Shown here: positions 275 to 45,554 of the stretch, piece after piece
Layout: every line of letters starts with the position of its first letter
Numbering within the stretch: position 1 is the first letter of the stretch
Assembly: GCA_016712345.1 (NCBI GenBank)
Contig: JADJRH010000002.1
Span: forward strand, 8,466 to 72,465
Direction: 5' to 3'
DNA length: 64,000 nucleotides
Source: Polyangiaceae bacterium
GTDB taxonomy: Bacteria > Myxococcota_A > Polyangia > Polyangiales > Polyangiaceae
The notes under the pieces: model-generated
The model's input: the letters and a program-made list of their open reading frames with translations, nothing else
Databases searched by the model: none
Told to the model about the DNA's origin: nothing
Program-made: the position numbers and the translations under genes

Positions 275-375
275 GCCCAACGTGGTATTCTGCTGCGGGC
301 AGGCGGCGCAAGCAGAGCGGACGAAGGACGCTCTGCGCAGCAAGCCTGACCGACAGCAGCAATACCTGGTTGGAC
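275..375 (-). other. attC site 1 (family B)
   Basis: GCCCAAC...GTTGGAC boxes. Arms GGTATTCTGCTGCGGGCAGG / CCTGACCGACAGCAGCAATACC. Extra unpaired bases in the 3' arm. Confidence 0.7.
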
Positions 376-857
376 ATCCCAAGCTCCGAGCCCCACCGTT
401 TAGGATGAGGCTGAGACATGGTAGCTGACCGACGCGTCGTATACAACACGGAATCACGGAGGACACGGAGGAGCACGGAGGATTTGGGTAAAAAGACGAA
501 TCGAAACGCTAAGCCATGTCGTTGAGCACGTGCCGACAAGAAAGTCGATGAGGGTGCCGCGAGCCGAGGAGCAGCGCATCGTAGGGAGCGTCCAACCCAT
601 GCGCTGGTCGATGGCGCAGGGCAGGGCGTCGAGCCCGAGCGAGGTGGTGAAGGGGCAGGTGAAGGGGCAGACCAAAGCGGACGAAGCCAAGGGAGCGGCT
701 GCGCTCCACGGCCGTCCCGCCGCCTCTGACGCACGGGTGAAAAGAGCAAAGAGGAATCGCTGTTTTCTGGGTGAAATTGGGAGGCATCGGGGGGAGCACG
801 AAACCGACGGTCGAATGGACGCAACTCGAAGAGGGCCAAAACCGATAGATCTTCAGG

Positions 858-953
858 GGTGTCCGCAAGGGCCGGCCGGGGAGTCGCCCAGAAAGAGGAC
901 TCGAAGAGAGCAGGGCGGAGAGGGCGACTCCCCGGCCGGCCCTTGCGGACACC
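858..953. repeat. Perfect 32-bp inverted repeat (hairpin with 32-nt loop) upstream of GxxExxY gene
   Basis: GGTGTCCGCAAGGGCCGGCCGGGGAGTCGCCC ... GGGCGACTCCCCGGCCGGCCCTTGCGGACACC. Copies lie near 26425..26520 and 37160..37255. Confidence 0.85.
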
Positions 954-1056
954 CTGCGAGCCAATCGAGCGCGCCGCGTCGAAAAGTTGCGCCCAATGGG
1001 TAGGAATGGTCCTCCCCCGAAGCCCTGAAACCACCCGAGAACAAGAGCGTCTCCCC

Positions 1057-1431
1057 ATGCTGTTATACAAGGAGTTGAGTCAAGAGGTGGTGGGAGCGGC
1101 GTTGGAAGTGCACCGTCACCTGGGGCCAGGTTTGCTGGAGTCGGCCTATGACCATGCGCTATGTCATGAGCTTGGGCTTCGACGGCTGCACTACCGTCGA
1201 CAAGTGGAAGTGCCAGTCCACTACAAGGGCGTGGTACTCGGCTCGTGGCTGCGCATGGACCTTTTGGTCGAAGAGCGAATCGTCGTGGAAGTCAAAGCGG
1301 TCGAACAGTCTCTACCCATCCACGGTGCTCAACTGCTGACTTACCTTCGACTCAGTGGTTATCGCGTCGGTCTGCTGATAAACTTCAACTCGTTACATCT
1401 GAAAAGTGGCATCGTGCGTCGGGTGATCTGA
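1057..1431 (+). CDS. GxxExxY protein (PD-(D/E)XK nuclease-like, TIGR04256-type), copy 1
   Basis: 124 aa beginning MLLYKELSQEVVGAALEVHRHLGPGLLESAYDHAL...LLINFN, the canonical GxxExxY family pattern. Identical copies lie at 26624 and 37358. Confidence 0.8.
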   Translation: MLLYKELSQEVVGAALEVHRHLGPGLLESAYDHALCHELGLRRLHYRRQVEVPVHYKGVVLGSWLRMDLLVEERIVVEVKAVEQSLPIHGAQLLTYLRLSGYRVGLLINFNSLHLKSGIVRRVI

Positions 1432-1470
1432 ACGATCTGACTGTCAAGTTGCCTTACTCACATAGGGTAT

Positions 1471-1637
1471 GTCCAACGTGGCATTCAGCCGCAAAGGCCG
1501 CGTGCCGCAACGTGTCAGGTGGGAAGAGGGAAGCCGCCGAGCCACATCCGTAAAACTCAAAAAAAGTGCTCGGCGGCGACCCGCGCGAGACGTGACCGGA
1601 TGCGACGGCCTTTGTCGGCTGCAATGCCGAGTTAGGG
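1471..1637 (-). other. attC site 2 (long family L, 167 bp)
   Basis: GTCCAAC...GTTAGGG boxes. Long imperfect palindrome GGCATTCAGCCGCAAAGGCCGC ... GCGACGGCCTTTGTCGGCTGCAATGCC. Confidence 0.65.
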
Positions 1638-2795: not shown

Positions 2796-2896
2796 CCTTA
2801 ACGTGGCAATCTGCTGCAAGCCCCAAAAGCAAGCAGAGCGGCCGAAGGACGCTCTGCGCAGCGTTGGGGATTGCCAGCAGCATTGCCGAGTTAGGT
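2796..2896 (-). other. attC site 3 (family A)
   Basis: CCTTAAC...GTTAGGT boxes. Arms GGCAATCTGCTGCAAGCCCC / GGGGATTGCCAGCAGCATTGCC. Central CAGAGCGGCCGAAGGACGCTCTG hairpin. Confidence 0.75.
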
Positions 2897-3980
2897 ACCT
2901 GACTCCCAACAAAGTGTTTTCGAATTTGTAACGCCGCACGCCGCGTTTTGAAGGGAGGAGCCGATTCCCAATTGTGTACACGAGGCAAACTCACGAACGC
3001 CGATTCGGTGTGTACACAAATCAGATTTCGAGACGCCAAGCCCACCGAAAACCTCCGCGCGAAACGAATACTACCTGTCTCAACCGGCCTGTCAACGCTT
3101 TCGAGCATGTCACCAGCGCCACCAAAATTGACGCCCACTTCACGCAACGTGGCACACGACGGGAAAGCCAAACCGCGACCACGCGGTTTGGTCCTTGAGA
3201 CAAATCTGAACGCGCCGAAATGTTGGCGAGATGGAAAACCTGCCTCTCCGAAACACAAGCTGGCTTTCGCCGAAGGCGTATAGGAAACGCTGACAATCAG
3301 GCCGTTTCGTCGATCTACCCACGCGCTCCCAACTGCGCGGTCTTCGCTCCGAATGTGTACACGGAGTGTCGACGGACACGAGGCCTCTCAGGGGCGAACC
3401 CGAAGTACAAGTAAGCTCATCCGAAGGCGCAAATGAAGCGTTTTGAGCAACGCTCCGATTCAAAAAAGAACAATGCCGCACCGAATATCAAGCGAAGCGC
3501 GATATTTGTGTACACGCACTGCGGCCACGCGTGCCGGCGTGTTTGCGTTGTTACACGAACGCCCTGAAAAGAAGCGAAGCGCGACAAATGTACCCATAAA
3601 AACCTACCCATGGCCGATTGCGCACATGTGGGTACACACAAACTTTTCGGACGAAATGAGCGCCTATCAAAGCAAAGTGATTTTCAAATGAGTCATACTG
3701 CCCACGATGTGTCGCATCGAACCCAAATCCGTCAACTCCAAATCTACCCACGGTCGGACATGGTTAGATCATGAATTGATAATGGATTAGAAGATACCCC
3801 ACCGGATGAACTACCGGTTGTCGCGGGAGTATAATTTTTGAACTTACCCACCCTCAACCCGAGCGCCGGTGAAGAACGATCAGGACATGCAAAATCCCTC
3901 GCAAAAGAGCCTCCGCGCACCAACTACCCACGTGCGCTTTCCGACAAAATTCAAGCGATTCTACCCACAAAATTCTGTGT
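2897..3980 (-). repeat. ORF-less cassette payload, family N1
   Basis: No ORF is conserved across copies. Shares TTTTCGAATTTGYAACGCCGCAC, TGTGTACAC palindromes, AAGCGAAGCGCGA and CTACCCA motifs with at least 9 other cassettes. Confidence 0.6.
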
Positions 3981-4080
3981 ACCTAACGTTGCGGTGTGCT
4001 GCGGCCGGGCGGCGCAAGCAGGGCGGACGAAGGACGCCCTGCGCAGCAAGCCCGGCCGTCAGTACCAGCGCATGGTTGGG
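3981..4080 (-). other. attC site 4 (family C)
   Basis: ACCTAAC...GTTGGGC boxes. Arms TTGCGGTGTGCTGCGGCCGGGCGG / CCCGGCCGTCAGTACCAGCGCATGG. Confidence 0.7.
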
Positions 4081-5312: not shown

Positions 5313-6437
5313 CTACCAATCCTCCTCGCGTATAACTTCTCGCTCAATAAGGAGCGCCAAAGCATCCGCCATGTCGGTGAGTATCAATCGATCTTCTTTG
5401 GGTATGAGAGCGATCCTGCCCCGCTCACTCTGAGATGTCGTGGCCTGGTTATCAATTCGAATGGTAAGGGAACGAAACTCATAGCTCCACGTGCCAACCA
5501 TCCTGGCTTCCGACCCATGAAAATGCGCGTGGAGCTTGTGAGGCGTCGACGTGTACAGCGTTTTACCCGGCAGAAAGCGGAACGCGCATCCTCCTACGCC
5601 GCCCTTGCGAACGGTTCGAAGAATAGACTCCAATACTGCAAGTGACATGTCCGCCAGTCGCGGATCAGCACGAAACTCCAGCTTGCTTTCTTCGACGTAC
5701 ATACGAGCGCCGTAGAAGTAGATGCTTGACTCACCCACGTCGTGTTGGGGGCGACCAATAAAATTCCATTGTACATCGCCTGATTGTTGTTGCATTCCGC
5801 CTTGCAGATACTGGTGCTCGACTCCCAGCTTCTGGAGCGCCTCCGCGGTTATCTCGATGATTCGCGACGGCGGCTCGGTCGCACCGCTCTCGCGAGTGAG
5901 CGTCACACGGATGTCGTCAATGAACGCCGAGTGGCGAGCCAATGCTCCAGTTCTCGCGCCCGACTCGGTGCGAAAGAACTCGTTGTATTCATCTAGTGAA
6001 AATACCTGCGCGTGCTGATGTCCGAACTCCTCATTGGACACCGCGATCAAATTATCTAGGCCGTCGGGCGACGTTATGTTGAATCCTTGAAGGAGGCTGA
6101 TCGGTGGTGGAAGCTGCGTCAGGTCGACCCCGAAGATGCCGACCGGGATGACCCGAACTCCTTTCGCGTAAACGAAGCCAGCTTCGAAGTACACCCACCT
6201 TGAATCGAGTGACGCTGGCGATAAGAAGACGATCATAAGGGTAGCTCGTTCAAGAGCTTCCTGGACCTTGTGTACCCAATTTCGCCCGAGTGGAATGCTC
6301 TGACCGTCACTGGATAGAAACACGTCAATGGTTCCACCGGTCTTCGCCACGAACATCTGCTTTAGACGAGTAAGTCTGTCTTTGTCCCGCGGTGAGTGGC
6401 TGAAGAAAACCGTGGGTTTGCTCTTGCTCTTGCTCAT
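5313..6437 (-). CDS. TIR-domain protein with uncharacterised about 230-aa C-terminal domain
   Basis: 374 aa. N-terminus VFFSHSPRDKDRLTRLKQMFVAKTGGTIDVFLSSDGQSIPLGRNWVHKVQEALERATLMIVFLSPASLDSRWVYFEAG is a bacterial TIR pattern, including the conserved Glu. First gene of a three-gene minus-strand operon inside a single cassette. Confidence 0.75.
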   Translation of the reverse strand: MSKSKSKPTVFFSHSPRDKDRLTRLKQMFVAKTGGTIDVFLSSDGQSIPLGRNWVHKVQEALERATLMIVFLSPASLDSRWVYFEAGFVYAKGVRVIPVGIFGVDLTQLPPPISLLQGFNITSPDGLDNLIAVSNEEFGHQHAQVFSLDEYNEFFRTESGARTGALARHSAFIDDIRVTLTRESGATEPPSRIIEITAEALQKLGVEHQYLQGGMQQQSGDVQWNFIGRPQHDVGESSIYFYGARMYVEESKLEFRADPRLADMSLAVLESILRTVRKGGVGGCAFRFLPGKTLYTSTPHKLHAHFHGSEARMVGTWSYEFRSLTIRIDNQATTSQSERGRIALIPKEDRLILTDMADALALLIEREVIREEDW

Positions 6438-7939: not shown

Positions 7940-8030
7940 GCTGAACGTGGCAATCTGCTGCAAGCCCCAAAAGCAAGCAGAGCGGCCGAAGGACGCTCTG
8001 CGCAGCGTTGGGGTTTGCCAGCAGCATTGC
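7940..8030 (-). other. attC site 6 (family A)
   Basis: Degenerate CTGAAC box at the 5' end, GTTAGGT box at the 3' end. Family A arms. Confidence 0.65.
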
Positions 8031-9068
8031 CGAGTTAGGTACCTGACTCCCAACAGAGTGTTTTCGAATTTGTAACGCCGCACGCCGCGTTTTGAAGGGA
8101 GTAGCCGATGCCCAATTGTGTACACGAGGCAAACCGACGAGCGCCGACTCGGTGTATACACAATTTTGACTTCGCGCTGCCAGACCCACCGAGAACCTCC
8201 GCGCGAAACGAATACTACCCGTCTCAACCGGGCTGTCAACGCTTTCGAGCATGTCACCAGCGCCACCAAAATTGACGCCCACCTCAAGCAACGTTGTCCA
8301 AGATCGGGCAGACCAAACCGCGACGGCCCGCTCTGTCCACGAAAAACGCACGAAGGTGCCGAAATGTTGGCGAGATGAAAACCAACCTGCGCGAAACAGG
8401 AAACGCCTACAAGCGGGCAGTTTCGTTGATCTACCCATGCGCTCCCAACACGGAGTGTCGACGGACACGAGGCCTCTCAGGGGCGAACCCGAAGTACGAG
8501 GAAGCTCATCCGAAGGGGCAAATGAAGCGTTTTGAGCAACGCTCCGATTCAAAAAGAACAATGCCGCACCGAATATCAAGCGAAGCGCGACACTTGCGTA
8601 CACGCACCGCGGCCACGCATGACAGCGTGGTTATGTTGTTGCGCGAACGCCGCAAAAAGAAGCGAAGCGCGACAAATGTACCCATAAAAACCTACCCATG
8701 GCCGACTGCGCACATGTGGGTACACACAAACTTTTCGGACGAAATGAGCGCCTATCAAAGCAAAGTGATTTTCAAATGAGTCATACCGCCCACGGATGTG
8801 TCGCATCGAACCCAAATCCGCCAACTCCAAATCTACCCACGGTCGGACATGGTTAGATCATGAATTGATAATGGATTATGAAGATACCCCACCGGATGAA
8901 CTACCGGTCGTTGTGGGAGTATAATTTTTGAACTTACCCACGCTCAACCCGACCGCCGGTGAAGAACATCAGGATATGCAAAATGCCTCGCAAAAGAGCC
9001 TCCGCGCACCAACTACCCACGTGCGCTTTCCGACAAATTCAAGCGATTCTACCCACAAAATTCTGTGT
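8031..9068 (-). repeat. ORF-less cassette payload, family N1
   Basis: Collinear with 2897..3980. Confidence 0.6.
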
Positions 9069-9235
9069 ACCTAACGTGGCATTCAGCCGCAAAGGCCGCA
9101 TCCCGCAACGTGTCAGGTGGGAAGAGGGAAGCCGCCGAGCCACATCCGTAAAACTTAAAAAAAGTGCTCGGCGGCGCCCCGTGCGAGACGTGACCGGATG
9201 CGACGGCCTTTGTCGGCTGCAATGCCGAGTTAGAC
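9069..9235 (-). other. attC site 7 (family L)
   Basis: ACCTAAC...GTTAGAC boxes. Long palindrome as in site 2. Confidence 0.65.
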
Positions 9236-9565: not shown

Positions 9566-10324
9566 ATGGAAAAGAATAGTCGTGATTTGTCCGCAGCTCG
9601 AATTTTCGGAGCCGCGAATGCTGTTGAGCCTGAAAATACCGATGAAATCAAGTGGCCGCCAAACGCACCAGACAAGTGGGTCAGGAGCGTGCCGGGTCGC
9701 CGCGGTAACCACCACCCATCGCTCTACTTACCCGAACCACAAGCGCGCGACCTGAATTCACTTCGCCCGGTTATCGAAAGGATCTTGCGCCGACACCGTG
9801 TAACTGCCCGCCACATTCCTGACCTGATTCAAGAGATCTTGGCGGAGTTAATTCGCGTCGCGAGAAGCCGCGGACACAGCAGTCAACCTCCCATCAACTC
9901 AACCGCGTATGGATTTGTTGCGGTGGTAGCCCGTCGCGTGGCGCGAAACCGGTCGGTGCTCAAAGCCCTCGGCGAACGGGAAGATCTCGGTGAATTGTGG
10001 GATCTGCTCGATTGTGAGGAGTCTCCCCATTCAACTTCCACGGGCGCGACTCCACTGGACTTGATAATCGAAAAGGAAGAAGAACAGAAGTTGACCGATC
10101 GACTCGACTGGTTGAGTCAGGCCACGAAGTCGAGATATTGGCGCGCTTTTTACGCCTTCACGATATTGGCCACGCCGATTGAAGACATCGCCGAAAGTGA
10201 AAATGTCAGTCCAGCCTCCATTTACGACCGTGTTCGACGAGCACGCGAAGACATCAAAGCCGCGCTCCAACGCGACAGAGCGAGCCGCGCTCCAAAGATG
10301 GACCTGAAACCATCCCAAACCTGA
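9566..10324 (+). CDS. ECF-type RNA polymerase sigma-70 factor (cassette paralog 1)
   Basis: 252 aa. Region-2-like segment HIPDLIQEILAELIRVARS...YGFVAVVARRVARNRS. Region-4 HTH segment RYWRAFYAFTILATPIEDIAESENVSPASIYDRVRRAREDIKAAL. Six paralogs are present in the window. Confidence 0.7.
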   Translation: MEKNSRDLSAARIFGAANAVEPENTDEIKWPPNAPDKWVRSVPGRRGNHHPSLYLPEPQARDLNSLRPVIERILRRHRVTARHIPDLIQEILAELIRVARSRGHSSQPPINSTAYGFVAVVARRVARNRSVLKALGEREDLGELWDLLDCEESPHSTSTGATPLDLIIEKEEEQKLTDRLDWLSQATKSRYWRAFYAFTILATPIEDIAESENVSPASIYDRVRRAREDIKAALQRDRASRAPKMDLKPSQT

Positions 10325-10492: not shown

Positions 10493-10593
10493 GTCTAACG
10501 TGGCAATCTGCTGCAAGCCCCAAAAGCAAGCAGAGCGGCCGAAGGACGCTCTGCGCAGCGCTGGGGATTGCCAGCAGCATTGCCGAGTTAGGT
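10493..10593 (-). other. attC site 8 (family A)
   Basis: GTCTAAC...GTTAGGT boxes. Family A arms. Confidence 0.75.
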
Positions 10594-11629
10594 ACCTGAC
10601 GCCCATTAGAGTGTTTTCGAATTTGGAACGACGCACGCCGCGTTTTGAAGGGAGTAGCCGATTCCCAGTTGTGTACACGAGGCAAACGGACAAACGCCGG
10701 TTGAGTGTGTACGCAAATCAGATTTCGCGACGCCAAACCCACCGAAAACCTCCGCGCGAGACGAATACTACCTGTCTCAACCGTCTTGTCAACGCTTTCG
10801 AGCGCGTCGCCAGCGCAACCAAAATTGACGCCCACCTCAAGCAACCTGGTCCAAGATCGGACGTACCAAACCGCGACGCCGACCGGCAGCTCTGGCCACG
10901 AAAAAATGCACGAAGGTGCCGAAATGTTGGCGAGATGAAAACCAACCTGCGCGAAACAGGAAACGCCTACAAGCGAGCAGTTTCGGTGATCTACCCACGC
11001 GCTTCCAACACGGAGTGTCGACGGACACGAGGCCTCTCAGGGGCGAACCCGAAGTACAAGTAAGCTCATCCGAAGGCGCAAATGAAGCGTCTTGAGCAAC
11101 GCTCCGATTCAAAAAGAACAATGCCGCACCGAATATCAAGCGAAGCGCGATATTTGTGTACACGCACTGCGGCCACGCGTGCCGGCGTGTTTGCGTTGTT
11201 ACACGAACGTCCTGAAAAGAAGCGAAGCGCGACAAATGTACCCATAAAAACCTACCCATGGCCGATTGCGCACATGTGGGTACACACAAACTTTTCGGAC
11301 GAAATGAGCGCCTATCAAAGCAAAGTGATTTTCAAATGAGTCATACTGCCCACGGATGTGTCGCATCGAACCCAAATCCGTCAACTCCAAATCTACCCAC
11401 GGTCGGACATGGTTAGATCATGAATTGATAATGGATTAGAAGATACCCCACCGGATGAACTACCGGTCGTCGCGGGAGTATAATTTTTGAACTTACCCAC
11501 CCTCAACCCGACCGCCGGTGAAGAACGATCAGGACATGCAAAATCCCTCGCAAAAGAGCCTCCGCGCACCAACTACCCACGTGCGCTTTCCGACAAAATT
11601 CAAGCGATTCTACCCACAAAATTCTGTGT
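10594..11629 (-). repeat. ORF-less cassette payload, family N1
   Basis: Collinear with 2897..3980. Confidence 0.6.
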
Positions 11630-11796
11630 ACCTAACGTGGCATTCAGCCGCAAAGGCCGCATCCCGCAACGTGTCAGGTGGGAAGAGGGAAGCCGCCGAG
11701 CCACATCCGTAAAACTCAAAAAAAGTGCTCGGCGGCGACCCGTGCGAGACGTGACCGGACGCGACGGCCTTTGTCGGCTGCAATGCCGAGTTAGAC
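11630..11796 (-). other. attC site 9 (family L)
   Basis: ACCTAAC...GTTAGAC boxes. Long palindrome. Confidence 0.65.
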
Positions 11797-12125: not shown

Positions 12126-12884
12126 ATGGAAAAGAATAGTCGTGATTTGTCCGCAGCTCGAATTTTCGGAGCCGCGAATGCTGTTGAGCCTGAAAATACC
12201 GATGAAATCAAGTGGCCGCCAAACGCACCAGACAAGTGGGTCAGGAGCGTGCCGGGGCGCCGCGGTAACCACCACCCATCGCTCTACTTACCCGAACCAC
12301 AAGCGCGCGACCTGAATTCACTTCGCCCGGTGATCGAAAGGATCTTGCGCCGACACCGTGTAACTCCTCGCCACATTCCCGACCTGATTCAAGAGATCTT
12401 GGCGGAGTTAATTCGCGTGGCGAGAAGCCGCGGGCACAGCAGTCAACCTCCCATCAACTCAACTGCGTACGGATTTGTTGCGGTGGTAGCCCGTCGCGTG
12501 GCGCGAAACCGGTCGGTGCTCAAAGCCCTTGGTGAACGGGAAGATCTCGGTGAATTGTGGGATCTGCTCGATTGTGAGGAGTCTCCCCATTCAACTACAA
12601 CGAGCACCACTCCACTGGACTTGATAATCGAAAAGGAAGAAGAACAGAAGTTGACCGATCGACTCGACTGGTTGAGTCAGGCCACAAAGTCGAGATATTG
12701 GCGCGCTTTTTATGCGTTTACCATTTTGGCCGTGCCAATCGAAGACATCGCCGAAAGTGAAAATGTCAGTCCAGCCTCCATTTACGACCGTGTTCGACGA
12801 GCCCGCGAAGACATCAAAGCCGCGCTCCAACGCGACAGAGCGAGCCGCGCGCCAAAGATGGACCTGAAACCATCCCAAACCTGA
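12126..12884 (+). CDS. ECF-type sigma-70 factor (paralog 2)
   Basis: Same architecture as paralog 1, with a few substitutions. Confidence 0.7.
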   Translation: MEKNSRDLSAARIFGAANAVEPENTDEIKWPPNAPDKWVRSVPGRRGNHHPSLYLPEPQARDLNSLRPVIERILRRHRVTPRHIPDLIQEILAELIRVARSRGHSSQPPINSTAYGFVAVVARRVARNRSVLKALGEREDLGELWDLLDCEESPHSTTTSTTPLDLIIEKEEEQKLTDRLDWLSQATKSRYWRAFYAFTILAVPIEDIAESENVSPASIYDRVRRAREDIKAALQRDRASRAPKMDLKPSQT

Positions 12885-13050: not shown

Positions 13051-13144
13051 GTCTAACGTGGGGCTGTGCTGTGGCCGCGCCGCAGCGCGCGCGGCACCGC
13101 CGCGCGCGCTGCGGCGCGGCCATCTGCACCAGCCCGGAGTTGGG
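13051..13144 (-). other. attC site 10 (family P, GC-rich palindrome)
   Basis: GTCTAAC...GTTGGGG boxes. GCCGCAGCGCGCGCGGCACCGCCGCGCGCGCTGCGGC palindrome. Confidence 0.6.
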
Positions 13145-13228
13145 GGGCATCTTGCGGTGACGCTCTGAGTCCATGTCGTACCCGTTCCATAAATGAGATT
13201 CTCATCAGAAGGCGGTAACTTGCCAAGG

Positions 13229-14383: not shown

Positions 14384-14714
14384 CTCTGGGGATTGCTACG
14401 ACCCATGTTTTGGAGCATCGTATTCCGAATCTGAATCTGTAGTCAACTGAGAAAAAAAGTTACGTTCCATTCCGCACAGTTGAGTCGCGTTGCAGTCTAA
14501 TTTTTCGATTCGCGTCCATTTTGCGCGCCGCCCCGAATGGCCCCGATGGATACTGACGCTCTGACATTCCACTCGACTGTCAGGTCAGAAAGGCGGTGTA
14601 CACAACCGCGGCGTTGTGTCAACGAGTTTGTACAAAATAAAACGGAGCCGGCCGGTGCTTGGAACCACCGAACGGCCCCTTGACCTGCGCCCCGCACCAA
14701 CGGAGAGCAAGCCC
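14384..14714 (+). promoter_or_regulatory. Conserved sigma-cassette leader (paralog 3)
   Basis: Same conserved block. Confidence 0.4.
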
Positions 14715-15473
14715 ATGGAAAAGAATAGTCGTGATTTGTCCGCAGCTCGAATTTTCGGAGCCGCGAATGCTGTTGAGCCTGAAAAAACCGATGAAATCAA
14801 GTGGCCGCCAAATGCACCGGACAAGTGGGTGAAGAGCGCGCCGGGCCGCCGCGGCAACCACCACCCATCGCTCTACTTACCCGAACCACAAGCCCGCGAC
14901 CTGAATTCACTTCGCCCGGTGATCGAAAGGATTTTGCGCCGCCACCGTGTAACTCCCCGTCACATTCCTGACCTGATTCAAGAGATCTTGGCGGAGTTAA
15001 TTCGCGTTGCGAGAAGCCGCGGACACAGCAGTCAACCTCCCATCAACTCAACCGCGTACGGATTTGTCGCGGTAGTGGCGCGCCGAGTGGCGCGAAACCG
15101 GTCGGTGCTCAAAGCCCTTGGCGAGCAAGAAACACTCGGTGAATTGTGGGATCTGCTCGATTGTCAGGAATCTCCCCATTCGACTGCGAGGAGTACAACT
15201 CCACTCGATTTGATGATTGAGAAAGAAGAAGAACAGAAGTTGACCGATCGACTCGACTGGTTGAGTCAGGCCACGAAGCCGAGATATTGGCGCGCTTTTT
15301 ATGCATTCACCATTTTGGCCGTACCGATCGAAGACATTGCCGAGAGTGAAAATATCAGTCCGGCCTCGACTTACGATCGGATTCGACGAGCACGCGACGA
15401 CATCAAAGCCGCGCTCCAACGCGACCGGGCGAGCCGTGCACCAAAGATGGACCTGAAGCCATCCCAAACCTGA
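14715..15473 (+). CDS. ECF-type sigma-70 factor (paralog 3)
   Basis: Starts at the conserved MEKNSRDL methionine inside track ORF 14616..15473. Confidence 0.7.
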   Translation: MEKNSRDLSAARIFGAANAVEPEKTDEIKWPPNAPDKWVKSAPGRRGNHHPSLYLPEPQARDLNSLRPVIERILRRHRVTPRHIPDLIQEILAELIRVARSRGHSSQPPINSTAYGFVAVVARRVARNRSVLKALGEQETLGELWDLLDCQESPHSTARSTTPLDLMIEKEEEQKLTDRLDWLSQATKPRYWRAFYAFTILAVPIEDIAESENISPASTYDRIRRARDDIKAALQRDRASRAPKMDLKPSQT

Positions 15474-16281: not shown

Positions 16282-17103
16282 CTACCTACCATCATGATCG
16301 TCCTCGTCAGATGACGATGCAGTCGGGAGCCCAGCATGTTCAAAGCAGAAAGCCAGATCTGGGCCGTACGCATGGTCGCCACAGAATGCTGCTCCGCACC
16401 ACTTCGGGTTGAGGTCACCTTCTTCGAGCGGATAATCGCAGTAGAAGTCAGCGAATGCGGAACAATTACCGTTTTCGCAAGTGAGTGATCGCTCGTTGGT
16501 CGCCGTTGGAAGTGGGTAGTATAAAGGGATGTGCTTTATTGAGAACGTGACACTTGGAATATTCGTTAGCGGCGCATCAATACGGCCCTGCGCCAGCGTG
16601 TCAGCGATCGCGAGTTTCAGATACCGTCGTACCAAGAGCAACGGAGGGAAAGCGTTCCTCAATGCGTACCACTCCAGTACGTCGCGAGCGGACTTACTGC
16701 TATTACATGAGCGACACGCCCAAACGAGATTGTCACCGGATTCAGCACCGCCGCGGTGTCTTGGAATCAGGTGATCGCCGTGAAGCTTCGGTGGCGGGGT
16801 TGCACCGCAATAAACGCAACGATCCCTGGGCATCTCGAGGACGTCGGCGAAAAGCGTTCCAAGCTTCATCGTGCCTTGGCAGAGGCCTTTGAAGAGCTTT
16901 GCTCGAACCATCCAACACCCAGCGTCGTATCTGGTGAGGCCGCGCTTTTCGGCGACACCTGCTGCCGCGAGATTTGCGTACGACCAATACAGGAGTTCGC
17001 CGACGGTTTCGATCCGCTTCGATCTATTTCCGGTCGTTCTATACCGACGAATAGGTGCGCCGCCGCTCTCGATTCCGCCCGGGATCTGATTCTGGTTTGA
17101 CAT
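16282..17103 (-). CDS. HNH endonuclease-domain protein with C-terminal Cys-rich region, copy a
   Basis: HNH motif CVYCGATPPPKLHGDHLIPRHRGGAESGDNLVWACRSCNSSK. ATG at 17103 (MSNQNQ); the track's upstream start falls inside an attC. Confidence 0.7.
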   Translation of the reverse strand: MSNQNQIPGGIESGGAPIRRYRTTGNRSKRIETVGELLYWSYANLAAAGVAEKRGLTRYDAGCWMVRAKLFKGLCQGTMKLGTLFADVLEMPRDRCVYCGATPPPKLHGDHLIPRHRGGAESGDNLVWACRSCNSSKSARDVLEWYALRNAFPPLLLVRRYLKLAIADTLAQGRIDAPLTNIPSVTFSIKHIPLYYPLPTATNERSLTCENGNCSAFADFYCDYPLEEGDLNPKWCGAAFCGDHAYGPDLAFCFEHAGLPTASSSDEDDHDGR

Positions 17104-17130
17104 CACACGTATGCGTTCACTTCTTCGTCC

Positions 17131-17233
17131 GCCCAACGTGCTGTTCAGCTGCAAGCGCCGAAAGCAAGCAGAGGGGCGCGTCAGCGACGCTCTGCGCAGC
17201 GTCGGCGTTTGCCAGCTGCAACAGCTGGTTGGG
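17131..17233 (-). other. attC site 13 (family D)
   Basis: GCCCAAC...GTTGGGC boxes. Same arms as site 12. Confidence 0.7.
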
Positions 17234-17776: not shown

Positions 17777-18598
17777 CTACCTACCATCATGATCGTCCTC
17801 GTCAGATGACGATGCAGTTGGGAGCCCACCATGTTCAAAGCAGAAAGCCAGATCTGGGCCGTACGCATGGTCGCCACAGAATGCTGCTCCGCACCACTTC
17901 GGGTTGAGGTCGCCTTCTTCGAGCGGATAATCGCAGTAGAAGTCAGCGAATGCGGAACAATTACCGTTTTCGCAAGTGAGTGATCGCTCGTTGGTCGCCG
18001 TTGGAAGTGGGTAGTATAAAGGGATGTGCTTTATTGAGAACGTGACACTTGGAATATTCGTTAGCGGCGCATCAATACAGCCCTGCGCCAGCGCGTCAGC
18101 GATCGCGAGTTTCAGATACCGTCGTACCAAGAGCAACGGAGGGAAAGCGTTCCTCAATGCGTACCACTCCAGTACGTCGCGAGCGGACTTACTGCTATTA
18201 CATGAGCGACACGCCCAAACGAGATTGTCACCGGATTCAGCACCGCCGCGGTGTCTTGGAATCAGGTGATCGCCGTGAAGCTTCGGTGGCGGGGTTGCAC
18301 CGCAATAAACGCAACGACCCCTGGGCATCTCGAGGACGTCGGCGAAAAGCGTTCCAAGCTTCATCGTGCCTTGGCAGAGGCCTTTGAAGAGCTTTGCTCG
18401 AACCATCCAACACCCAGCGTCGTAACTCGTGAGGCCGCGCTTATCGGCGACACCTGCTGCCGCGAGATTTGCGTACGACCAATACAGGAGTTCGCCGACG
18501 GTTTCGATCCGCTTCGATCTATTTCCGGTCGTTCTATACCGACGAATAGGTGCGCCGCCGCTCTCGATTCCGCCCGGGATCTGATTCTGGTTTGACAT
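17777..18598 (-). CDS. HNH endonuclease-domain protein, copy b
   Basis: Near-identical tandem cassette duplicate of copy a. ATG at 18598. Confidence 0.7.
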   Translation of the reverse strand: MSNQNQIPGGIESGGAPIRRYRTTGNRSKRIETVGELLYWSYANLAAAGVADKRGLTSYDAGCWMVRAKLFKGLCQGTMKLGTLFADVLEMPRGRCVYCGATPPPKLHGDHLIPRHRGGAESGDNLVWACRSCNSSKSARDVLEWYALRNAFPPLLLVRRYLKLAIADALAQGCIDAPLTNIPSVTFSIKHIPLYYPLPTATNERSLTCENGNCSAFADFYCDYPLEEGDLNPKWCGAAFCGDHAYGPDLAFCFEHGGLPTASSSDEDDHDGR

Positions 18599-18625
18599 CA
18601 CACGTATGCGTTCACTTCTTCGTCC

Positions 18626-18729
18626 GCCCAACGTGGGGTTGTGCTGCAAGCCCCGAAAGCAAGCAGAGGGGCGCGTCAGCGACGCTCTGCGCAGCGTCGG
18701 GGCTTGTCAGAACCAACCCCTGGTTGGAC
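18626..18729 (-). other. attC site 14 (family G)
   Basis: GCCCAAC...GTTGGAC boxes. Family G arms. Confidence 0.7.
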
Positions 18730-19056: not shown

Positions 19057-19815
19057 ATGGAAAAGAATAGTCGCGATTTGTCCGCAGCTCGAATTTTCGG
19101 AGCCGCGAATGCTGTTGAGCCTGAAAAAACCGATGAAATCAAGTGGCCGCCAAATGCACCGGACAAGTGGGTGAAGAGCGCGCCGGGCGGCCGCGGCAAC
19201 CACCACCCATCGCTCTACTTACCCGAACCGCAAGCCCGCGACCTGAATTCACTTCGCCCGGTGATCGAAAGGATCTTGCGCCGCCACCGTGTAACTCCCC
19301 GTCACATTCCTGACCTGATTCAAGAGATCTTGGCGGAGTTAATTCGCGTTGCGAGAAGCCGCGGACACAGCAGTCAACCTCCCATCAACTCAACCGCGTA
19401 CGGATTTGTAGCGGTCGTGGCCCGTCGAGTGGCGCGAAACCGGTCGGTGCTCAAAGCCCTTGGCGAGCAAGAAACACTCGGTGAATTGTGGGATTTGCTT
19501 GATTGTCAGGAATCTCCCCATTCGACTGCGACGAGTACAACTCCACTTGACTTGATGATCGAAAAAGAAGAAGAACAGAAGTTGACCGATCGACTCGACT
19601 GGTTGAGTCAGGCCACGAAGCCGAGATATTGGCGCGCTTTTTATGCATTCACCATTTTGGCCGTGCCGATCGAAGACATTGCCGAGAGTGAGAATATCAG
19701 TCCGGCCTCGACTTACGATCGCATTCGACGAGCACGAGACGACATCAAGGCCGCGCTCCACCGCGATCGGGCGAGCCGCGCACCAAAGATGGACCTGAAA
19801 CCATCCCAAACCTGA
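19057..19815 (+). CDS. ECF-type sigma-70 factor (paralog 4)
   Basis: Paralog with the same start (MEKNSRDL) and the same region-2 and region-4 motifs. Confidence 0.7.
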   Translation: MEKNSRDLSAARIFGAANAVEPEKTDEIKWPPNAPDKWVKSAPGGRGNHHPSLYLPEPQARDLNSLRPVIERILRRHRVTPRHIPDLIQEILAELIRVARSRGHSSQPPINSTAYGFVAVVARRVARNRSVLKALGEQETLGELWDLLDCQESPHSTATSTTPLDLMIEKEEEQKLTDRLDWLSQATKPRYWRAFYAFTILAVPIEDIAESENISPASTYDRIRRARDDIKAALHRDRASRAPKMDLKPSQT

Positions 19816-24960: not shown

Positions 24961-25062
24961 CTCTAACGTGGCAATCTGCTGCAAGCCCCAAAAGCAAGCA
25001 GAGCGGCCGAAGGACGCTCTGCGCAGCGCTGGGGATTGCCAGCAGCATTGCCGAGTTAGCGG
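24961..25062 (-). other. attC site 19 (family A)
   Basis: CTCTAAC...GTTAGCG boxes. Family A arms. Confidence 0.7.
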
Positions 25063-25105
25063 GCCTCTTTCGTAATTTCGTACCTGATACTGCCATGTGG
25101 AATAC

Positions 25106-25561
25106 TCAGGCGATCTTTTTGAAAGTAACGAAAAGATTCATGTTGAAAGCCTCTGCCACCTTCATGATTGTTTCGATCGTTGGATTCGCATCGGGATCTT
25201 CGAGTTTCGCAATTTGTTGTTGGGATACGCCAACGCGCTTCGCCAACTCGGTCTGACTCCACCCGCTCTCGTGTCGCATTGATCGGAGTTGCAATGCGAG
25301 CGCCAGTTTGGGTGAAATCGTGATGGGTACACTTCGCGCATCAGAAGTGGAACGTCGACGCACCCGTGGCAGTTCCAATCCCTCCACGAGATGGGCCTCC
25401 AACCAGCCTTCGATCGCTTCTTTAGCCATCGGATACACATCCTTCGCACTCTCTGCGAAGGTTTGACAACCCGGGGCGTCTGGAAACTCGATTAAGTAAT
25501 GCCGACCGTCTTTGCGAACGTGGGCAGTATACTGTAGCGTATCCGTGTGACGGTTGCTCAT
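25106..25561 (-). CDS. hicB: HicB-family antitoxin (RNase-H-like HicB N-domain + XRE HTH)
   Basis: MSNRHTDTLQYTAHVRKDGRHYLIEFPDAPGCQTF...GWSQTELAKRVGVSQQQIAKLE. Start derived from track ORF 25106..25882; overlaps the hicA stop codon. Confidence 0.75.
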   Translation of the reverse strand: MSNRHTDTLQYTAHVRKDGRHYLIEFPDAPGCQTFAESAKDVYPMAKEAIEGWLEAHLVEGLELPRVRRRSTSDARSVPITISPKLALALQLRSMRHESGWSQTELAKRVGVSQQQIAKLEDPDANPTIETIMKVAEAFNMNLFVTFKKIA

Positions 25562-25761
25562 GTGAGGGCTACTCCAGCCTGACGCTCGATGCTTTTTAGT
25601 GTTCCGAGCGGTAGGTCTTTCCGTGGGTGAGGCACGGTGACAATTCCTGGCTTCGTCGGATGTTTGAAGTGGTGATGCGAGCCTCGGGCACGCACCAGCG
25701 TCCACCCGTCCAGTCGAAGAACGCGTATCACCTGTGTCGAGGTCACCGGGCGATGATACAA
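25558..25761 (-). CDS. hicA: HicA-family toxin
   Basis: TSTQVIRVLRLDGWTLVRARGSHHHFKHPTKPGIVTVPHPRKDLPLGTLKSIERQAG matches HicA. Non-ATG start. Confidence 0.8.
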   Translation of the reverse strand: MYHRPVTSTQVIRVLRLDGWTLVRARGSHHHFKHPTKPGIVTVPHPRKDLPLGTLKSIERQAGVALT

Positions 25762-26424
25762 CCTTCGGGTTGTGGGTCAAGGAGTTTCGTGGTCGTATCC
25801 CGGCCGTGCCGACAAATTTATTTTCGCGTGTCGAGCTTGTCGAGATCTGTGACGTTATCACGCTAATCGACTGAGTGTACACACGGTGTCGATAAACTTG
25901 ATGTTGAAGATCTTGTTCGTTACAGCCGTCTTCCGACTCGACCGTGAATGTTCAAGGTTGGCTCGGCATAATTTGATAATTGAGGTAGGTCACGAAATCG
26001 ATCTGACCGTCAAACGAAGTTGTCCAAAAAGATCGCGCCCGGTTACAGAAATTAAAAAGACGAATCGAAACGCTAAGCCATGTCGTTGAGCACGTGCCGA
26101 CAAGAAAGTCGATGAGGGTGCCGCGAGCCGAGGAGCAGCGCATCGTAGGGAGCGTCCAACCCATGCGCTGGTCGATGGCGCAGGGCAGGGCGTCGAGCCC
26201 GAGCGAGGTGGTGAAGGGGCAGGTGAAGGGGCAGACCAAAGCGGACGAAGCCAAGGGAGCGGCTGCGCTCCACGGCCGTCCCGCCGCCTCTGACGCACGG
26301 GTGAAAAGAGCAAAGAGGAATCGCTGTTTTTCTGGGTGAAATTGGGAGGCATCGGGGGGGGAGCACGAAACCGACGGTCGAATGGACGCAACTCGAAGAG
26401 GGCCAAAACCGATAGATCTTCAGG

Positions 26425-26520
26425 GGTGTCCGCAAGGGCCGGCCGGGGAGTCGCCCAGAAAGAGGACTCGAAGAGAGCAGGGCGGAGAGGGCGACTCCCC
26501 GGCCGGCCCTTGCGGACACC
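26425..26520. repeat. Perfect 32-bp inverted repeat upstream of GxxExxY copy 2
   Basis: Same sequence as 858..953. Confidence 0.8.
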
Positions 26521-26623
26521 CTGCGAGCCAATCGAGCGCGCCGCGTCGAAAAGTTGCGCCCAATGGGTAGGAATGGTCCTCCCCCGAAGCCCTGAAACCA
26601 CCCGAGAACAAGAGCGTCTCCCC

Positions 26624-26998
26624 ATGCTGTTATACAAGGAGTTGAGTCAAGAGGTGGTGGGAGCGGCGTTGGAAGTGCACCGTCACCTGGGGCCAGGTTT
26701 GCTGGAGTCGGCCTATGACCATGCGCTATGTCATGAGCTTGGGCTTCGACGGCTGCACTACCGTCGACAAGTGGAAGTGCCAGTCCACTACAAGGGCGTG
26801 GTACTCGGCTCGTGGCTGCGCATGGACCTTTTGGTCGAAGAGCGAATCGTCGTGGAAGTCAAAGCGGTCGAACAGTCTCTACCCATCCACGGTGCTCAAC
26901 TGCTGACTTACCTTCGACTCAGTGGTTATCGCGTCGGTCTGCTGATAAACTTCAACTCGTTACATCTGAAAAGTGGCATCGTGCGTCGGGTGATCTGA
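26624..26998 (+). CDS. GxxExxY protein, copy 2
   Basis: Identical to copy 1. Same upstream 32-bp palindrome. Confidence 0.8.
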   Translation: MLLYKELSQEVVGAALEVHRHLGPGLLESAYDHALCHELGLRRLHYRRQVEVPVHYKGVVLGSWLRMDLLVEERIVVEVKAVEQSLPIHGAQLLTYLRLSGYRVGLLINFNSLHLKSGIVRRVI

Positions 26999-27038
26999 AC
27001 GATCTGACTGTCAAGTTGCCTTACTCACATAGGGTATG

Positions 27039-27141
27039 TCCAACGTGGGGTTGTGCTGCAAGCCCCGAAAGCAAGCAGAGGGGCGCGTCAGCGACGCTCT
27101 GCGCAGCGTCGGGGTTTGTCAGAACCAACCCCTGGTTGGGC
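27039..27141 (-). other. attC site 20 (family G)
   Basis: GTCCAAC...GTTGGGC boxes. Family G arms. Confidence 0.7.
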
Positions 27142-36640: not shown

Positions 36641-36741
36641 ACCTAACGTGGTATTCTGCTGCGGGCAGGCGGCGCAAGCAGAGCGGACGAAGGACGCTCT
36701 GCGCAGCAAGCCTGACCGACAGCAGCAATACCTGGTTGGAC
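36641..36741 (-). other. attC site 27 (family B)
   Basis: ACCTAAC...GTTGGAC boxes. Family B arms. Confidence 0.7.
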
Positions 36742-37159
36742 ATCCCAAGCTCCGAGCCCCACCGTTTAGGATGAGGCTGAGACATGGTAAAAAGACGAAT
36801 CGAAACGCTAAGCCATGTCGTTGAGCACGTGCCGACAAGAAAGTCGATGAGGGTGCCGCGAGCCGAGGAGCAGCGCATCGTAGGGAGCGTCCAACCCATG
36901 CGCTGGTCGATGGCGCAGGGCAGGGCGTCGAGCCCGAGCGAGGTGGTGAAGGGGCAGGTGAAGGGGCAGACCAAAGCGGACGAAGCCAAAGGAGCGGCTG
37001 CGCTCCACGGCCGTCCCGCCGCCTCTGACGCACGGGTGAAAAGAGCAAAGAGGAATCGCTGTTTTTCTGGGTGAAATTGGGAGGCATCGGGGGGGGAGCA
37101 CGAAACCGACGGTCGAATGGACGCAACTCGAAGAGGGCCAAAACCGATAGATCTTCAGG

Positions 37160-37255
37160 GGTGTCCGCAAGGGCCGGCCGGGGAGTCGCCCAGAAAGAGG
37201 ACTCGAAGAGAGCAGGGCGGAGAGGGCGACTCCCCGGCCGGCCCTTGCGGACACC
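37160..37255. repeat. Perfect 32-bp inverted repeat upstream of GxxExxY copy 3
   Basis: Same sequence as 858..953. Confidence 0.8.
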
Positions 37256-37357
37256 CTGCGAGCCAATCGAGCGCGCCGCGTCGAAAAGTTGCGCCCAATG
37301 GGTAGGAATGGTCCTCCCCGAAGCCCTGAAACCACCCGAGAACAAGAGCGTCTCCCC

Positions 37358-37732
37358 ATGCTGTTATACAAGGAGTTGAGTCAAGAGGTGGTGGGAGCGG
37401 CGTTGGAAGTGCACCGTCACCTGGGGCCAGGTTTGCTGGAGTCGGCCTATGACCATGCGCTATGTCATGAGCTTGGGCTTCGACGGCTGCACTACCGTCG
37501 ACAAGTGGAAGTGCCAGTCCACTACAAGGGCGTGGTACTCGGCTCGTGGCTGCGCATGGACCTTTTGGTCGAAGAGCGAATCGTCGTGGAAGTCAAAGCG
37601 GTCGAACAGTCTCTACCCATCCACGGTGCTCAACTGCTGACTTACCTTCGACTCAGTGGTTATCGCGTCGGTCTGCTGATAAACTTCAACTCGTTACATC
37701 TGAAAAGTGGCATCGTGCGTCGGGTGATCTGA
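37358..37732 (+). CDS. GxxExxY protein, copy 3
   Basis: Identical to copy 1. Confidence 0.8.
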   Translation: MLLYKELSQEVVGAALEVHRHLGPGLLESAYDHALCHELGLRRLHYRRQVEVPVHYKGVVLGSWLRMDLLVEERIVVEVKAVEQSLPIHGAQLLTYLRLSGYRVGLLINFNSLHLKSGIVRRVI

Positions 37733-37771
37733 ACGATCTGACTGTCAAGTTGCCTTACTCACATAGGGTAT

Positions 37772-37866
37772 GTCCAACGTGGGGCTGTGCTGTGGCCGCG
37801 CCGCAGCGCGCGCGGCACCGCCGCGCGCGCTGCGGCGCGGCCATCTGCACCAGCCCGGAGTTGGGG
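37772..37866 (-). other. attC site 28 (family P)
   Basis: GTCCAAC...GTTGGGG boxes. GC-rich palindrome identical to site 10. Confidence 0.6.
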
Positions 37867-39000: not shown

Positions 39001-39101
39001 CCCCAACGTGGCAATCTGCTGCAAGCCCCAAAAGCAAGCAGAGCGGCCGAAGGACGCTCTGCGCAGCGTTGGGGTTTGCCAGCAGCATTGCCGAGTTAGG
39101 T
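39001..39101 (-). other. attC site 29 (family A)
   Basis: CCCCAAC...GTTAGGT boxes. Family A arms. Confidence 0.7.
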
Positions 39102-40182: not shown

Positions 40183-40280
40183 ACCTAACGTGGGGTTGAG
40201 CTGCAGCCGTCCGCGCAGCAAGTGGCCGGCGCCGCCGGCCACGCCGCAAGCAGGCTGTCAGATCCAACCCCGTGTTGGGC
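40183..40280 (-). other. attC site 30 (singleton family J)
   Basis: ACCTAAC...GTTGGGC boxes. Arms GGGGTTGAGCTGCAGCCGTCC / GGCTGTCAGATCCAACCCC. Confidence 0.55.
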
Positions 40281-44293: not shown

Positions 44294-44394
44294 GCCTAAC
44301 GTGGCAATCTGCTGCAAGCCCCAAAAGCAAGCAGAGCGGCCGAAGGACGCTCTGCGCAGCGTTGGGGTTTGCCAGCAGCATTGCCGAGTTAGGT
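44294..44394 (-). other. attC site 33 (family A)
   Basis: GCCTAAC...GTTAGGT boxes. Family A arms. Confidence 0.7.
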
Positions 44395-45450: not shown

Positions 45451-45554
45451 ACCTAACGTGGGGTTGTGCTGCAAGCCCCGAGAGCAAGCAGAGGGGCGCG
45501 TCAGCGACGCTCTGCGCAGCGTCGGGGCTTGTCAGAACCAACCCCTGGTTGGAC
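45451..45554 (-). other. attC site 34 (family G)
   Basis: ACCTAAC...GTTGGAC boxes. Family G arms. Confidence 0.7.

Follow-up and report, generated by a model that had tools for sequence, protein, structure and literature searches.

Three copies of a GxxExxY nuclease-family gene with a perfect palindrome in its leader are carried by gene cassettes of a large chromosomal integron in a Polyangiaceae bacterium

A small gene of the GxxExxY family, whose product belongs to the PD-(D/E)XK proteins (PDDEXK_3), occurs three times in a 64,000-nt stretch of contig JADJRH010000002.1 from an uncultured Polyangiaceae bacterium (assembly GCA_016712345.1), and each copy is preceded by a long, perfect palindrome. 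We refer to the full stretch as the window. The locus raises the question of why this unit is repeated, and of what the palindrome in front of the gene might do. The repetition is ordinary: the units are gene cassettes of a very large sedentary chromosomal integron, and they were duplicated as such. The hairpin is real and has an unusual, symmetric anatomy. With regard to its role, we tentatively favour, at a little less than an even chance, a reading in which the cassette carries its own promoter in a conserved island upstream of the palindrome, and in which the palindrome would form a 5'-terminal stem-loop of the GxxExxY mRNA that acts on its stability or processing.

The integron spans nearly the whole window (275-60893 plus 62628-63641), and its integrase gene is readily recognized:

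62628-63641, minus strand: intI, the integron integrase gene, which heads the array and is transcribed towards the cassettes (TIGR02249, 395.7 bits against a cut-off of 265; Pfam Phage_integrase and Phage_int_SAM_4)

A covariance model built from 32 attC recombination sites of the window detected 45 attC sites with scores of 36.6-112 bits on the plus strand and far lower ones on the minus strand; very divergent sites can escape this model, and it missed three further attC sites of 167 nt that were found by a fold-based scan. The attC alignment exhibits clear covariation, and AACGTGG ... CCNGGTT boxes are present in every real site. In all, the array has at least 47 attC sites, and its 46 complete cassettes, each about 1.1-2.2 kb long, occupy about 61 kb. 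When these were clustered, 34 of the 46 fell into multi-copy families (with 6, 6, 6, 4, 3, 3, 2, 2, and 2 members), and 12 were present as single copies. The GxxExxY cassette is thus found three times because the cassettes of this array have been copied repeatedly, and its triplication is ordinary in such a setting. The three copies and their immediate surroundings are as follows:

275-375, minus strand: own attC of copy 1, with the recombinogenic bottom strand on plus (109.1 bits there in the covariance model versus 42.6 on minus)
281-1476, minus strand (array-sense): cassette copy 1, 1196 nt, from the crossover point in the neighbouring attC to that in its own attC (attC scans and cassette clustering)
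421-489, plus strand: segment of 69 nt found in copy 1 only, with a tandem array of CACGGAAT and 3 x CACGGAGGA at 447-482
1057-1431, plus strand: GxxExxY (PD-(D/E)XK, PDDEXK_3) gene of copy 1, 124 amino acids (aa)
1471-1637, minus strand: attC of the neighbouring BrnT/BrnA cassette, 167 nt, of which only the first 11 nt are common to the attCs after copies 2 and 3
24967-27043, minus strand: cassette copy 2, 2077 nt, with the core at 26053-27048, palindrome arms at 26424-26456 and 26489-26521, the GxxExxY gene at 26624-26998 (plus strand), and a HicB/HTH-type gene at 25106-25882 (minus strand) without an attC between them
36647-37777, minus strand: cassette copy 3, 1131 nt, with its own attC at 36641-36741, palindrome arms at 37159-37191 and 37224-37256, and the GxxExxY gene at 37358-37732 (plus strand); the 69-nt CACGGAG segment is missing

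A preliminary description of this DNA had spoken of three identical cassettes. Three units are indeed present, and their 375-nt gene is base-identical (1057-1431, 26624-26998, and 37358-37732, all on the plus strand), but the units as a whole are not. They share a core of 993-998 nt (489-1481, 26053-27048, and 36786-37782; blastn identities of 99.7% and 99.5%) that consists of the leader, the foldback, the gene, and a 3' tail. The differences within this core are three homopolymer indels (in T-, G-, and C-runs) and one G/A change at position 691, all of which could be sequencing errors. On the right-hand side, the identity among the copies ends exactly between GTCCAAC and GTGG. On the left-hand side, copy 1 is the fullest, with 69 extra nt (421-489) that are flanked by GGTA microhomology; the CACGGAG tandem array contained in this segment (447-482) is kept in neither of the other two copies. 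Copy 3 lacks the 69 nt through a deletion between the GGTA microhomologies, and copy 2 has lost all sequence left of the breakpoint, its own attC included, and is joined to the HicB/HTH-type gene. Since a homologous CACGGAG array is present in related cassettes from other samples (L002, L026, L028, L029, L031, and L034; see below), copies 2 and 3 are deletion derivatives. The left breakpoint shared by the copies (489 / 26053 / 36788) is positioned just inside the CACGGAG array, which is intact in copy 1, removed with the 69-nt deletion in copy 3, and replaced by the HicB-type fusion in copy 2; this suggests a recombination-prone spot.

Five agreeing lines of evidence identify the minus strand as the sense (top) strand of the array, so that the GxxExxY gene, on the plus strand, is antisense to it, as had been proposed from the letters of the sequence. 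The left attC is common to copies 1 and 3 (275-375 and 36641-36741 are nearly identical), while the right attCs of the three copies are of three unrelated types; hence, the left attC is the cassette's own. In the consensus attC, both bulged bases are located on the 3' arm of the plus strand, opposite 5'-AAC, an arrangement described for recombinogenic bottom strands (PMC5027507). The plus strand of each attC also folds more stably than the minus strand, in keeping with the more stable fold reported for attC bottom strands (PMC5027507). The open reading frames (ORFs) of the array with domain matches (TIR, SIR2, HNH, and HicB/HTH) are found on the minus strand, and their stop codons adjoin attCs. 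Lastly, intI lies upstream of the cassettes on the same (minus) strand, a co-directional layout of integrase gene and cassettes that is atypical but known from Treponema (PMC3607928). As a gene opposite to the array strand, the GxxExxY gene makes no use of the array promoter. The six-copy cassette family with a 252-aa ORF on the plus strand (9566-10324, 12126-12884, 14616-15473, 19057-19815, 45885-46643, and 51193-52098) is antisense to the array as well; the ORF has a weak match to the extracytoplasmic function (ECF) sigma-70 model TIGR02937 (E = 7e-6) that is below the cut-off.

The GxxExxY gene is preceded by a leader of about 570-640 nt. ORFs across this region on the minus strand (255-1070) and on the plus strand (530-1003, 157 aa) are broken by frameshifting indels between the copies, and the plus-strand ORF has no Pfam match (the minus-strand ORF was not scanned); we therefore regard the leader as non-coding and rejected a protein-coding function for it. 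Within the leader, the following elements are arranged around the palindrome of copy 1:

790-826, plus strand: conserved leader island, GGGGGAGCACGAAACCGACGGTCGAATGGACGCAACT; together with the two-block motif GCAACT-N16-CGAT (821-846) it forms a conserved block, 790-846, aimed at the hairpin and the gene
827-856, no strand: left spacer, 30 nt
857-889, no strand: left arm of the palindrome, 33 nt, GGGTGTCCGCAAGGGCCGGCCGGGGAGTCGCCC
890-921, no strand: loop, 32 nt, purine-rich, in which ACTCGAAGAGGGC, a sequence of the island region, recurs in direct orientation with 12/13 matches (borderline significance; z = 2.9, 13/500 shuffles reach the score)
922-954, no strand: right arm of the palindrome, 33 nt, whose inner 17 nt, GCGACTCCCCGGCCGGC, are common to the homologous cassette L025
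955-984, no strand: right spacer, 30 nt
985-1018, minus strand: inverted, diverged island, 26/34 positions identical (about 76%; z = 3.7, 4/500 shuffles reach the score)
990-964, minus strand: mirrored motif GCAACT-N17-CGAT, aimed back into the hairpin; together with the inverted island it makes up the feature 964-1018

An inverted repeat of 32 bp, perfect and with its halves 32 nt apart, had been described at this position. Its perfection and the 32-nt separation hold, and the arms turn out to be 33 nt long: they are 100% complementary, with 33/33 pairs and no G-U pair. As RNA, the palindrome is predicted to fold with -90.8 kcal/mol (z = -10.9 against shuffled sequences). A search of the 64 kb for inverted repeats of 20 nt or more, with halves no further than 200 nt apart, yields just five: the palindromes of the three GxxExxY cassettes and two repeats inside attC sites. 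These two are perfect 24-bp palindromes with 3-nt loops (13072-13122 and 37793-37843) that constitute the central stems of the 95-nt attCs at 13051-13145 and 37772-37866, so the GxxExxY leader is not the only place in this array with a long perfect stem. A symmetric foldback of about 230 bp, of which the palindrome is the perfect core, extends over the leader in the order island, 30 nt, arm, 32-nt loop, arm, 30 nt, and inverted island. The two halves of the foldback match to very different degrees, with 33/33 positions in the arms, about 76% in the islands, and a near-random level, as judged by eye, in the spacers. Each of the GCAACT-N16/17-CGAT motifs ends 9-10 nt before the foot of the hairpin and points inwards. 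The motif is present six times in the window, two per cassette and convergent on the palindrome, and nowhere else, against a chance expectation of 1.14.

To place these elements in a wider context, we compared them with homologous cassettes (L001-L003, L025-L034, and L160/L161) from soil, sediment, and wastewater metagenomes and from a 12.8-Mb contig, the proteins of which are 65-72% identical to that of the window. These cassettes are bounded by attCs wherever their flanks are visible, and a neighbouring called ORF is on the strand opposite to GxxExxY in L001, L025, L027, L031, and L160. They share the upstream order attC, about 60 nt, a CACGGAG tandem array of 3-4 units, about 300 variable nt, the island, a GC-rich repeat zone, and the ATG codon. 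The island is the best-conserved non-coding block among them, with the consensus GAGCACGAtttCGACG..GAT.GGACGCAAC. Of 8 homolog leaders, 6 keep exactly 16 nt between GCAAC and CGA (the other two have 15 and 21 nt), and the spacer sequences are unrelated. The fixed spacing between two short conserved blocks points to a -35/-10 promoter-like arrangement, and we infer from it that the island and the two-block motif form a promoter- or operator-like element.

The slot that holds the palindrome in the window is filled differently in the homologs. Its GC-rich zone contains direct repeats of 24 nt x2 in L001 and L002 and of 33 nt x2.7-3.2 in L029; L027, L028, and L029 all code for one and the same protein (P0008), yet L028 has one 33-nt unit fewer than the other two. 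The preliminary description had named the absence of the palindrome from GxxExxY loci elsewhere, together with the lack of a processing signal in RNA data, as what would refute its interpretation, and the comparison yields a divided picture. The palindrome is missing from all five homolog types whose sequence spans the slot (L001, L002/L003, L026, L027-L031, and L034), and L160/L161, with only 66 nt of upstream sequence, are uninformative in this respect. Yet L025 (71% amino acid identity) has kept 17/17 nt of the inner right arm, at a similar distance from the arm to the ATG (135-144 nt in L025 and the window), before its contig begins inside the would-be loop, and long inverted repeats are common at GxxExxY loci across phyla (see below). 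The metagenome contigs of the close homologs L025, L160, and L161 stop abruptly 66-144 nt upstream of the gene. Hairpins and repeats may break short-read assemblies at this place and thereby hide such structures from surveys.

In the reading that we tentatively favour, the upstream motif would be the cassette's own promoter, and it would be ECF-sigma-like, with an AAC-containing -35 block and a CGA/CGT -10 block. Blocks of this type recall the promoters of ECF sigma factors. The near-palindromic sequence CGACGGTCG beside the motif would be a possible operator. Transcription would start at the foot of the hairpin, so that the GxxExxY mRNA opens with a stem-loop of about -90 kcal/mol, and this stem-loop would set the fate of the mRNA, either by protecting its 5' end or by providing a perfect duplex of the RNase III type. 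The predicted 33-bp duplex (-90.8 kcal/mol) has the structure expected of an RNase III substrate, a perfect dsRNA of about two helical turns or more, and the earlier suggestions of an RNase III-type processing site and of a nuclease target both fit a perfect duplex of this length. The same stem would be present on array-sense transcripts and on any RNA that starts from the mirrored motif; because the DNA is a perfect palindrome, it could act as a barrier to transcription on either strand, array-sense transcripts included. The hairpin might, in addition, be the 5' end of a convergent antisense RNA initiated at the mirrored motif. The promoter activity, the start site, and the effect at the RNA level are predictions from the layout of the motifs and the fold. 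The inner arm preserved in L025, together with the preserved two-block motifs, argues against pure neutrality.

Several observations weigh against this proposal. A promoter scan of 200-1700 found no sigma-70 promoter. The palindrome is, as described, missing from the homologs that span its slot, and the GC-rich repeats that these carry fold no better than shuffled sequences (z between 0.8 and -1.4), so that a structure conserved without its sequence cannot be claimed. A perfect 33/33 stem without any G-U pair is atypical of selection at the RNA level alone; it fits a young duplication, homogenization of the arms, or a constraint at the DNA level equally well. The mirrored motif is not evident by eye in L025. 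Finally, conservation within the window is uninformative, since all three copies represent one independent evolutionary event and their mutual identity reveals nothing about selection.

The encoded protein itself is a clear member of its family, and the earlier assignment to the GxxExxY/PD-(D/E)XK proteins was borne out by matches to PF13366 (E = 5.9e-41, 139.9 bits against a cut-off of 22) and TIGR04256 (E = 4.6e-42, 143.1 bits against a cut-off of 35). It is 100% identical to MBK8254986.1, MBK8255014.1, and MBK8255029.1 of a Polyangiaceae metagenome-assembled genome. The residues G25, E28, Y31, D68, E78, and K80 are invariant across 33 homologs, and the nuclease core looks intact on this basis. 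The family is very large, with at least 7998 relatives at E <= 0.001 among the best 8000 candidates; a protein scan of the genome collection returned relatives of 59% identity or less. A sequence search of the PDB detected no solved structure for the protein, a PADLOC search gave no match, and the AlphaFold2 (AF2) model is poor (pLDDT 48). We found no function for the GxxExxY family in the literature searched, and PF13366 is entered as 'Unknown' in a survey of the PD-(D/E)XK families.

Inverted repeats accompany GxxExxY genes far beyond the integron. We inspected distant loci (L004-L024 and L035) from phyla that include Planctomycetota, Acidobacteriota, Bacteroidota, Verrucomicrobiota, Desulfobacterota, and Myxococcota, and in 16 of 21 of them, as well as in L035, the 150 nt upstream of the start codon and the 150 nt downstream of the stop codon contain a highly significant inverted repeat (z = 6-22). 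At most of these loci, each arm consists of an array of three units, which are 7-9 nt long and of the type CACGGAG, CACAGAG, CGCAGAG, or CACGAAGG, and all of the arrays of three CRCRGAG-like units found in 126 kb (43/43) lie within 400 nt of a GxxExxY ORF. The acidobacterial genes are flanked on both sides by local hairpins that these arrays form, the arms measuring 30 nt and the loops about 13-18 nt. The arms of L035 (2974-3003 and 3374-3405) abut the start and stop codons, and the arrays of L018 are at 2819-2896 and 3393-3465. In some homologs, N- or C-terminal extensions of the protein are translated CACGGAG/CTCCGTG arrays, e.g., 'HRDTE' and 'SPCLRVSVV'; sequence resembling the palindrome arms is translated in none of the N-terminally extended homolog proteins. 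We found neither an Rfam family for the flanking arrays nor a description of them in the literature searched. The integron subfamily has the upstream array only, and its up- and downstream flanks form no inverted repeat with each other (z = 1.5 for the cassette studied here). Judged from these loci, GxxExxY genes seem to be accompanied by long stems as a general trait, which leaves room for a functional link between the palindrome and the nuclease.

How, then, are the promoter and 5' stem-loop to be weighed against other explanations of the hairpin? It could be a neutral by-product: an inverted duplication would have created the foldback, or else two diverged GxxExxY cassettes that faced in opposite directions would have recombined, and a functionless hairpin, recent or with converted arms, would then have been copied along with the cassette. 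We hold this to be possible but rather unlikely. The absence of the palindrome from every homologous cassette that spans the slot speaks for this explanation, as does the nature of the slot, a hypervariable GC-rich repeat zone in which L028 has one unit fewer than L027 and L029 at an unchanged protein. In the foldback, moreover, the right half resembles a diverged homolog of the left, with 26/34 matches in the island, 33/33 in the arms, and a near-random level in the spacer, and the array is highly recombinogenic, with 34/46 cassettes duplicated. A by-product does not sit well, however, with the 17/17 inner-arm nucleotides and the same arm-to-ATG distance in L025, which suggest a structure that is older than this genome and nevertheless perfect, with the two-block motif and its 16/17-nt spacing being kept in both islands despite diverged spacers, or with the recurrence of long stems beside GxxExxY genes in general. 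The hairpin or a cruciform formed by it might instead be a target at the DNA or RNA level that is recognized or cut by the adjacent PD-(D/E)XK nuclease or by a partner, in the service of maintenance, mobility, or self-regulation, and would then be the counterpart of the inverted arrays found elsewhere. The inverted repeats at distant loci (16/21 and L035) and the tight association of the arrays with GxxExxY ORFs (43/43 within 400 nt) speak for such a target, and the acidobacterial hairpins with their 30-nt arms are similar in size to the palindrome. The catalytic E, D, E, and K residues are intact, the perfect symmetry of the two strands suits a constraint at the DNA level, and the left breakpoint beside the CACGGAG array recurs in three contexts. 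We nonetheless consider this explanation unlikely: the arms lack the CRCRGAG periodicity and have no sequence in common with those arrays, the cassette subfamily is without an inverted repeat between its flanks (z below 1.5), and the protein offers no clue to its substrate, be it through a PDB relative, a PADLOC match, or the AF2 model. A broader version would make GxxExxY genes the cargo of widespread, undescribed small hairpin or bracket elements with a stem of about 30 bp built from inverted CRCRGAG-like arrays, where the stem would work as a partner of the nuclease, for example as a site of processing, self-regulation, or maintenance; in the cassette, a captured and rearranged version, the stem would be replaced by the perfect 33-bp palindrome with its convergent promoter-like motifs. 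We give this proposal a small chance of being right.

The remaining explanations treat the palindrome as a known type of element, and the chance that any of the three is correct is small even when they are combined. An insertion that resembles a miniature inverted-repeat transposable element (MITE) or a repetitive extragenic palindromic (REP) sequence, i.e., a 98-nt mobile palindrome with 33-nt perfect terminal inverted repeats and a 32-nt spacer that landed in the leader, would fit in size and design, and the slot does hold different repeats in the homologs. Such an insertion is very unlikely, as no target-site duplication is seen by eye at the edges, no copy exists in the 64 kb outside the three cassettes or, with a 24-nt arm query, in viral contigs, and the flanks are part of a larger symmetric foldback that an insertion leaves unexplained. 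A metagenome scan with the 17-nt core of the arm, a pattern that is too short, gave at least 120 stretches, and those listed were all chance matches with no GxxExxY gene nearby. The palindrome could also stem from a former recombination site between two fused cassettes, as the variable central part of an attC that is degenerate or secondary, given that the fold-based scan flags 819-992 (ACGCAAC ... GTTGCGC, 174 nt) as attC-like and that perfect central palindromes of 24 bp do occur in genuine attCs of this array. Against this stand its score of 20.6 bits (E about 0.01; 36.6-112 in real sites), which covers the bare hairpin at 860-951 only, the missing AACGTGG ... CCNGGTT boxes, and the fact that no copy boundary or rearrangement coincides with the palindrome; we rejected it as an attC, an identity that is most improbable. 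No more credible is an intrinsic terminator or insulator whose main role would be to keep array-sense transcription driven by the array promoter (Pc) from entering the gene in antisense. Great stability and an identical fold on the array-sense strand would suit such a role, but the hairpin is positioned upstream of the 5' end of the gene, so that array-sense transcripts would cross the whole gene before they reach it. The copies lie about 24-60 kb from the integrase end, and read-through from the array promoter is therefore unlikely to matter. The preliminary suggestion of a terminator for array transcription does not hold for a canonical terminator: no T-run follows the stem on either strand (on the plus strand it continues with TGCGAGCC; on the minus strand, the first T-run is a TTTT at a distance of 17 nt), and a terminator scan of 200-1700 was empty at the palindrome.

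Sedentary chromosomal integrons such as the Vibrio cholerae superintegron contain reverse-oriented, self-promoted cassettes that typically encode toxin-antitoxin systems. The GxxExxY cassette resembles these in being bounded by attCs within a very large chromosomal array and in carrying a gene against the array that needs its own expression signals; BrnT/BrnA and HicB-type cassettes even stand beside it in the same array. Unlike toxin-antitoxin cassettes, it has a single small nuclease gene without a partner ORF, a leader of about 600 nt, and a foldback with convergent motifs. The palindrome shares with the attC sites of the array, which are imperfect palindromes and in some cases have perfect 24-bp central stems, its general design; in contrast to them, it is devoid of R and L boxes and is located off the cassette boundary.

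At the RNA level, 5'-terminal stem-loops of the ompA type stabilize bacterial mRNAs, and RNase III cuts long perfect duplexes. A long GC-rich stem at the predicted 5' end of the transcript is in line with both, and its 33 bp exceed the duplex length that RNase III needs; compared to known mRNA stabilizers, the stem in the GxxExxY leader is far longer and more perfect, and the transcript start is a predicted one. Correia elements and REP sequences or bacterial interspersed mosaic elements (BIMEs) form hairpins in mRNAs that are cleaved by RNase III. Like these and MITEs, the palindrome measures about 100 nt, ends in perfect inverted repeats, and lies in a 5' leader, but neither a target duplication nor dispersed copies were seen (64-kb window and viral contigs), and its flanks take part in a mirror-symmetric duplication.

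In S23p intervening sequences, inverted repeats bracket an ORF, and RNase III carries out the excision. Similarities to such elements of the 23S rRNA are the small gene, the many copies per genome, and the long stems, as well as the bracketing of distant GxxExxY genes by inverted arrays. The GxxExxY unit differs from them in that it is not in an rRNA gene, has a local hairpin upstream of the ORF, and encodes a protein of another family. We rejected an rRNA intervening-sequence element as the identity of the unit on the grounds that Rfam detects no rRNA in the window and that no bracket surrounds the ORF (z = 1.5). Rfam yielded no match at all in the window at gathering thresholds, and at permissive E-values it gave only generic long-hairpin matches (DUF3800-IV and miRNA precursors), far below the thresholds. 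Intervening sequences of the 23S rRNA with a small ORF (S23p) are treated in PMC4990558.

Type III toxin-antitoxin systems (ToxIN) follow the order promoter, tandem RNA repeats, terminator, and nuclease gene. The homologous cassettes are reminiscent of this order, as they carry 2-3 tandem direct repeats of 24-33 nt between the island and the nuclease gene. In the window, by contrast, the repeat is inverted, no terminator was found, and the protein fold is a different one; a type III system was rejected on these grounds, direct repeats being present in the homologs only.

The cassette thus represents a compact, testable GxxExxY unit of about 1 kb in which the gene is combined with a conserved promoter-like island and an extreme hairpin. 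Should the hairpin control the nuclease or be acted on by it, and should the brackets elsewhere follow the same principle, this unit would provide a first handle on the role of GxxExxY proteins; if the hairpin is merely a by-product of recombination, it is an ordinary duplicated cassette. The window in any case documents a large integron of the Myxococcota with many duplicated cassettes and a co-directional integrase gene.

Other parts of the array deserve brief mention. In the intI region (62001-64000), the GC skew jumps to +0.42, very unlike the rest of the window. A six-copy family of about 1.15 kb (2802-3986, 7946-9074, 10499-11635, 39007-40188, 44300-45456, and 55868-57054) has only overlapping ORFs of at most 239 aa and may be non-coding. 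Several other cassettes look as if they served defence or addiction. Among them are those for a TIR-domain protein and a SIR2 protein (5313-6437 and 46939-48582), two copies of an HNH endonuclease gene (16282-17154 and 17777-18649), the BrnT/BrnA pair (1691-2271), and the HicB/HTH antitoxin-like gene (25106-25882). The SIR2 protein matches the Argonaute-associated PADLOC family Aga_SIR2-PNTD with E = 1.6e-62.

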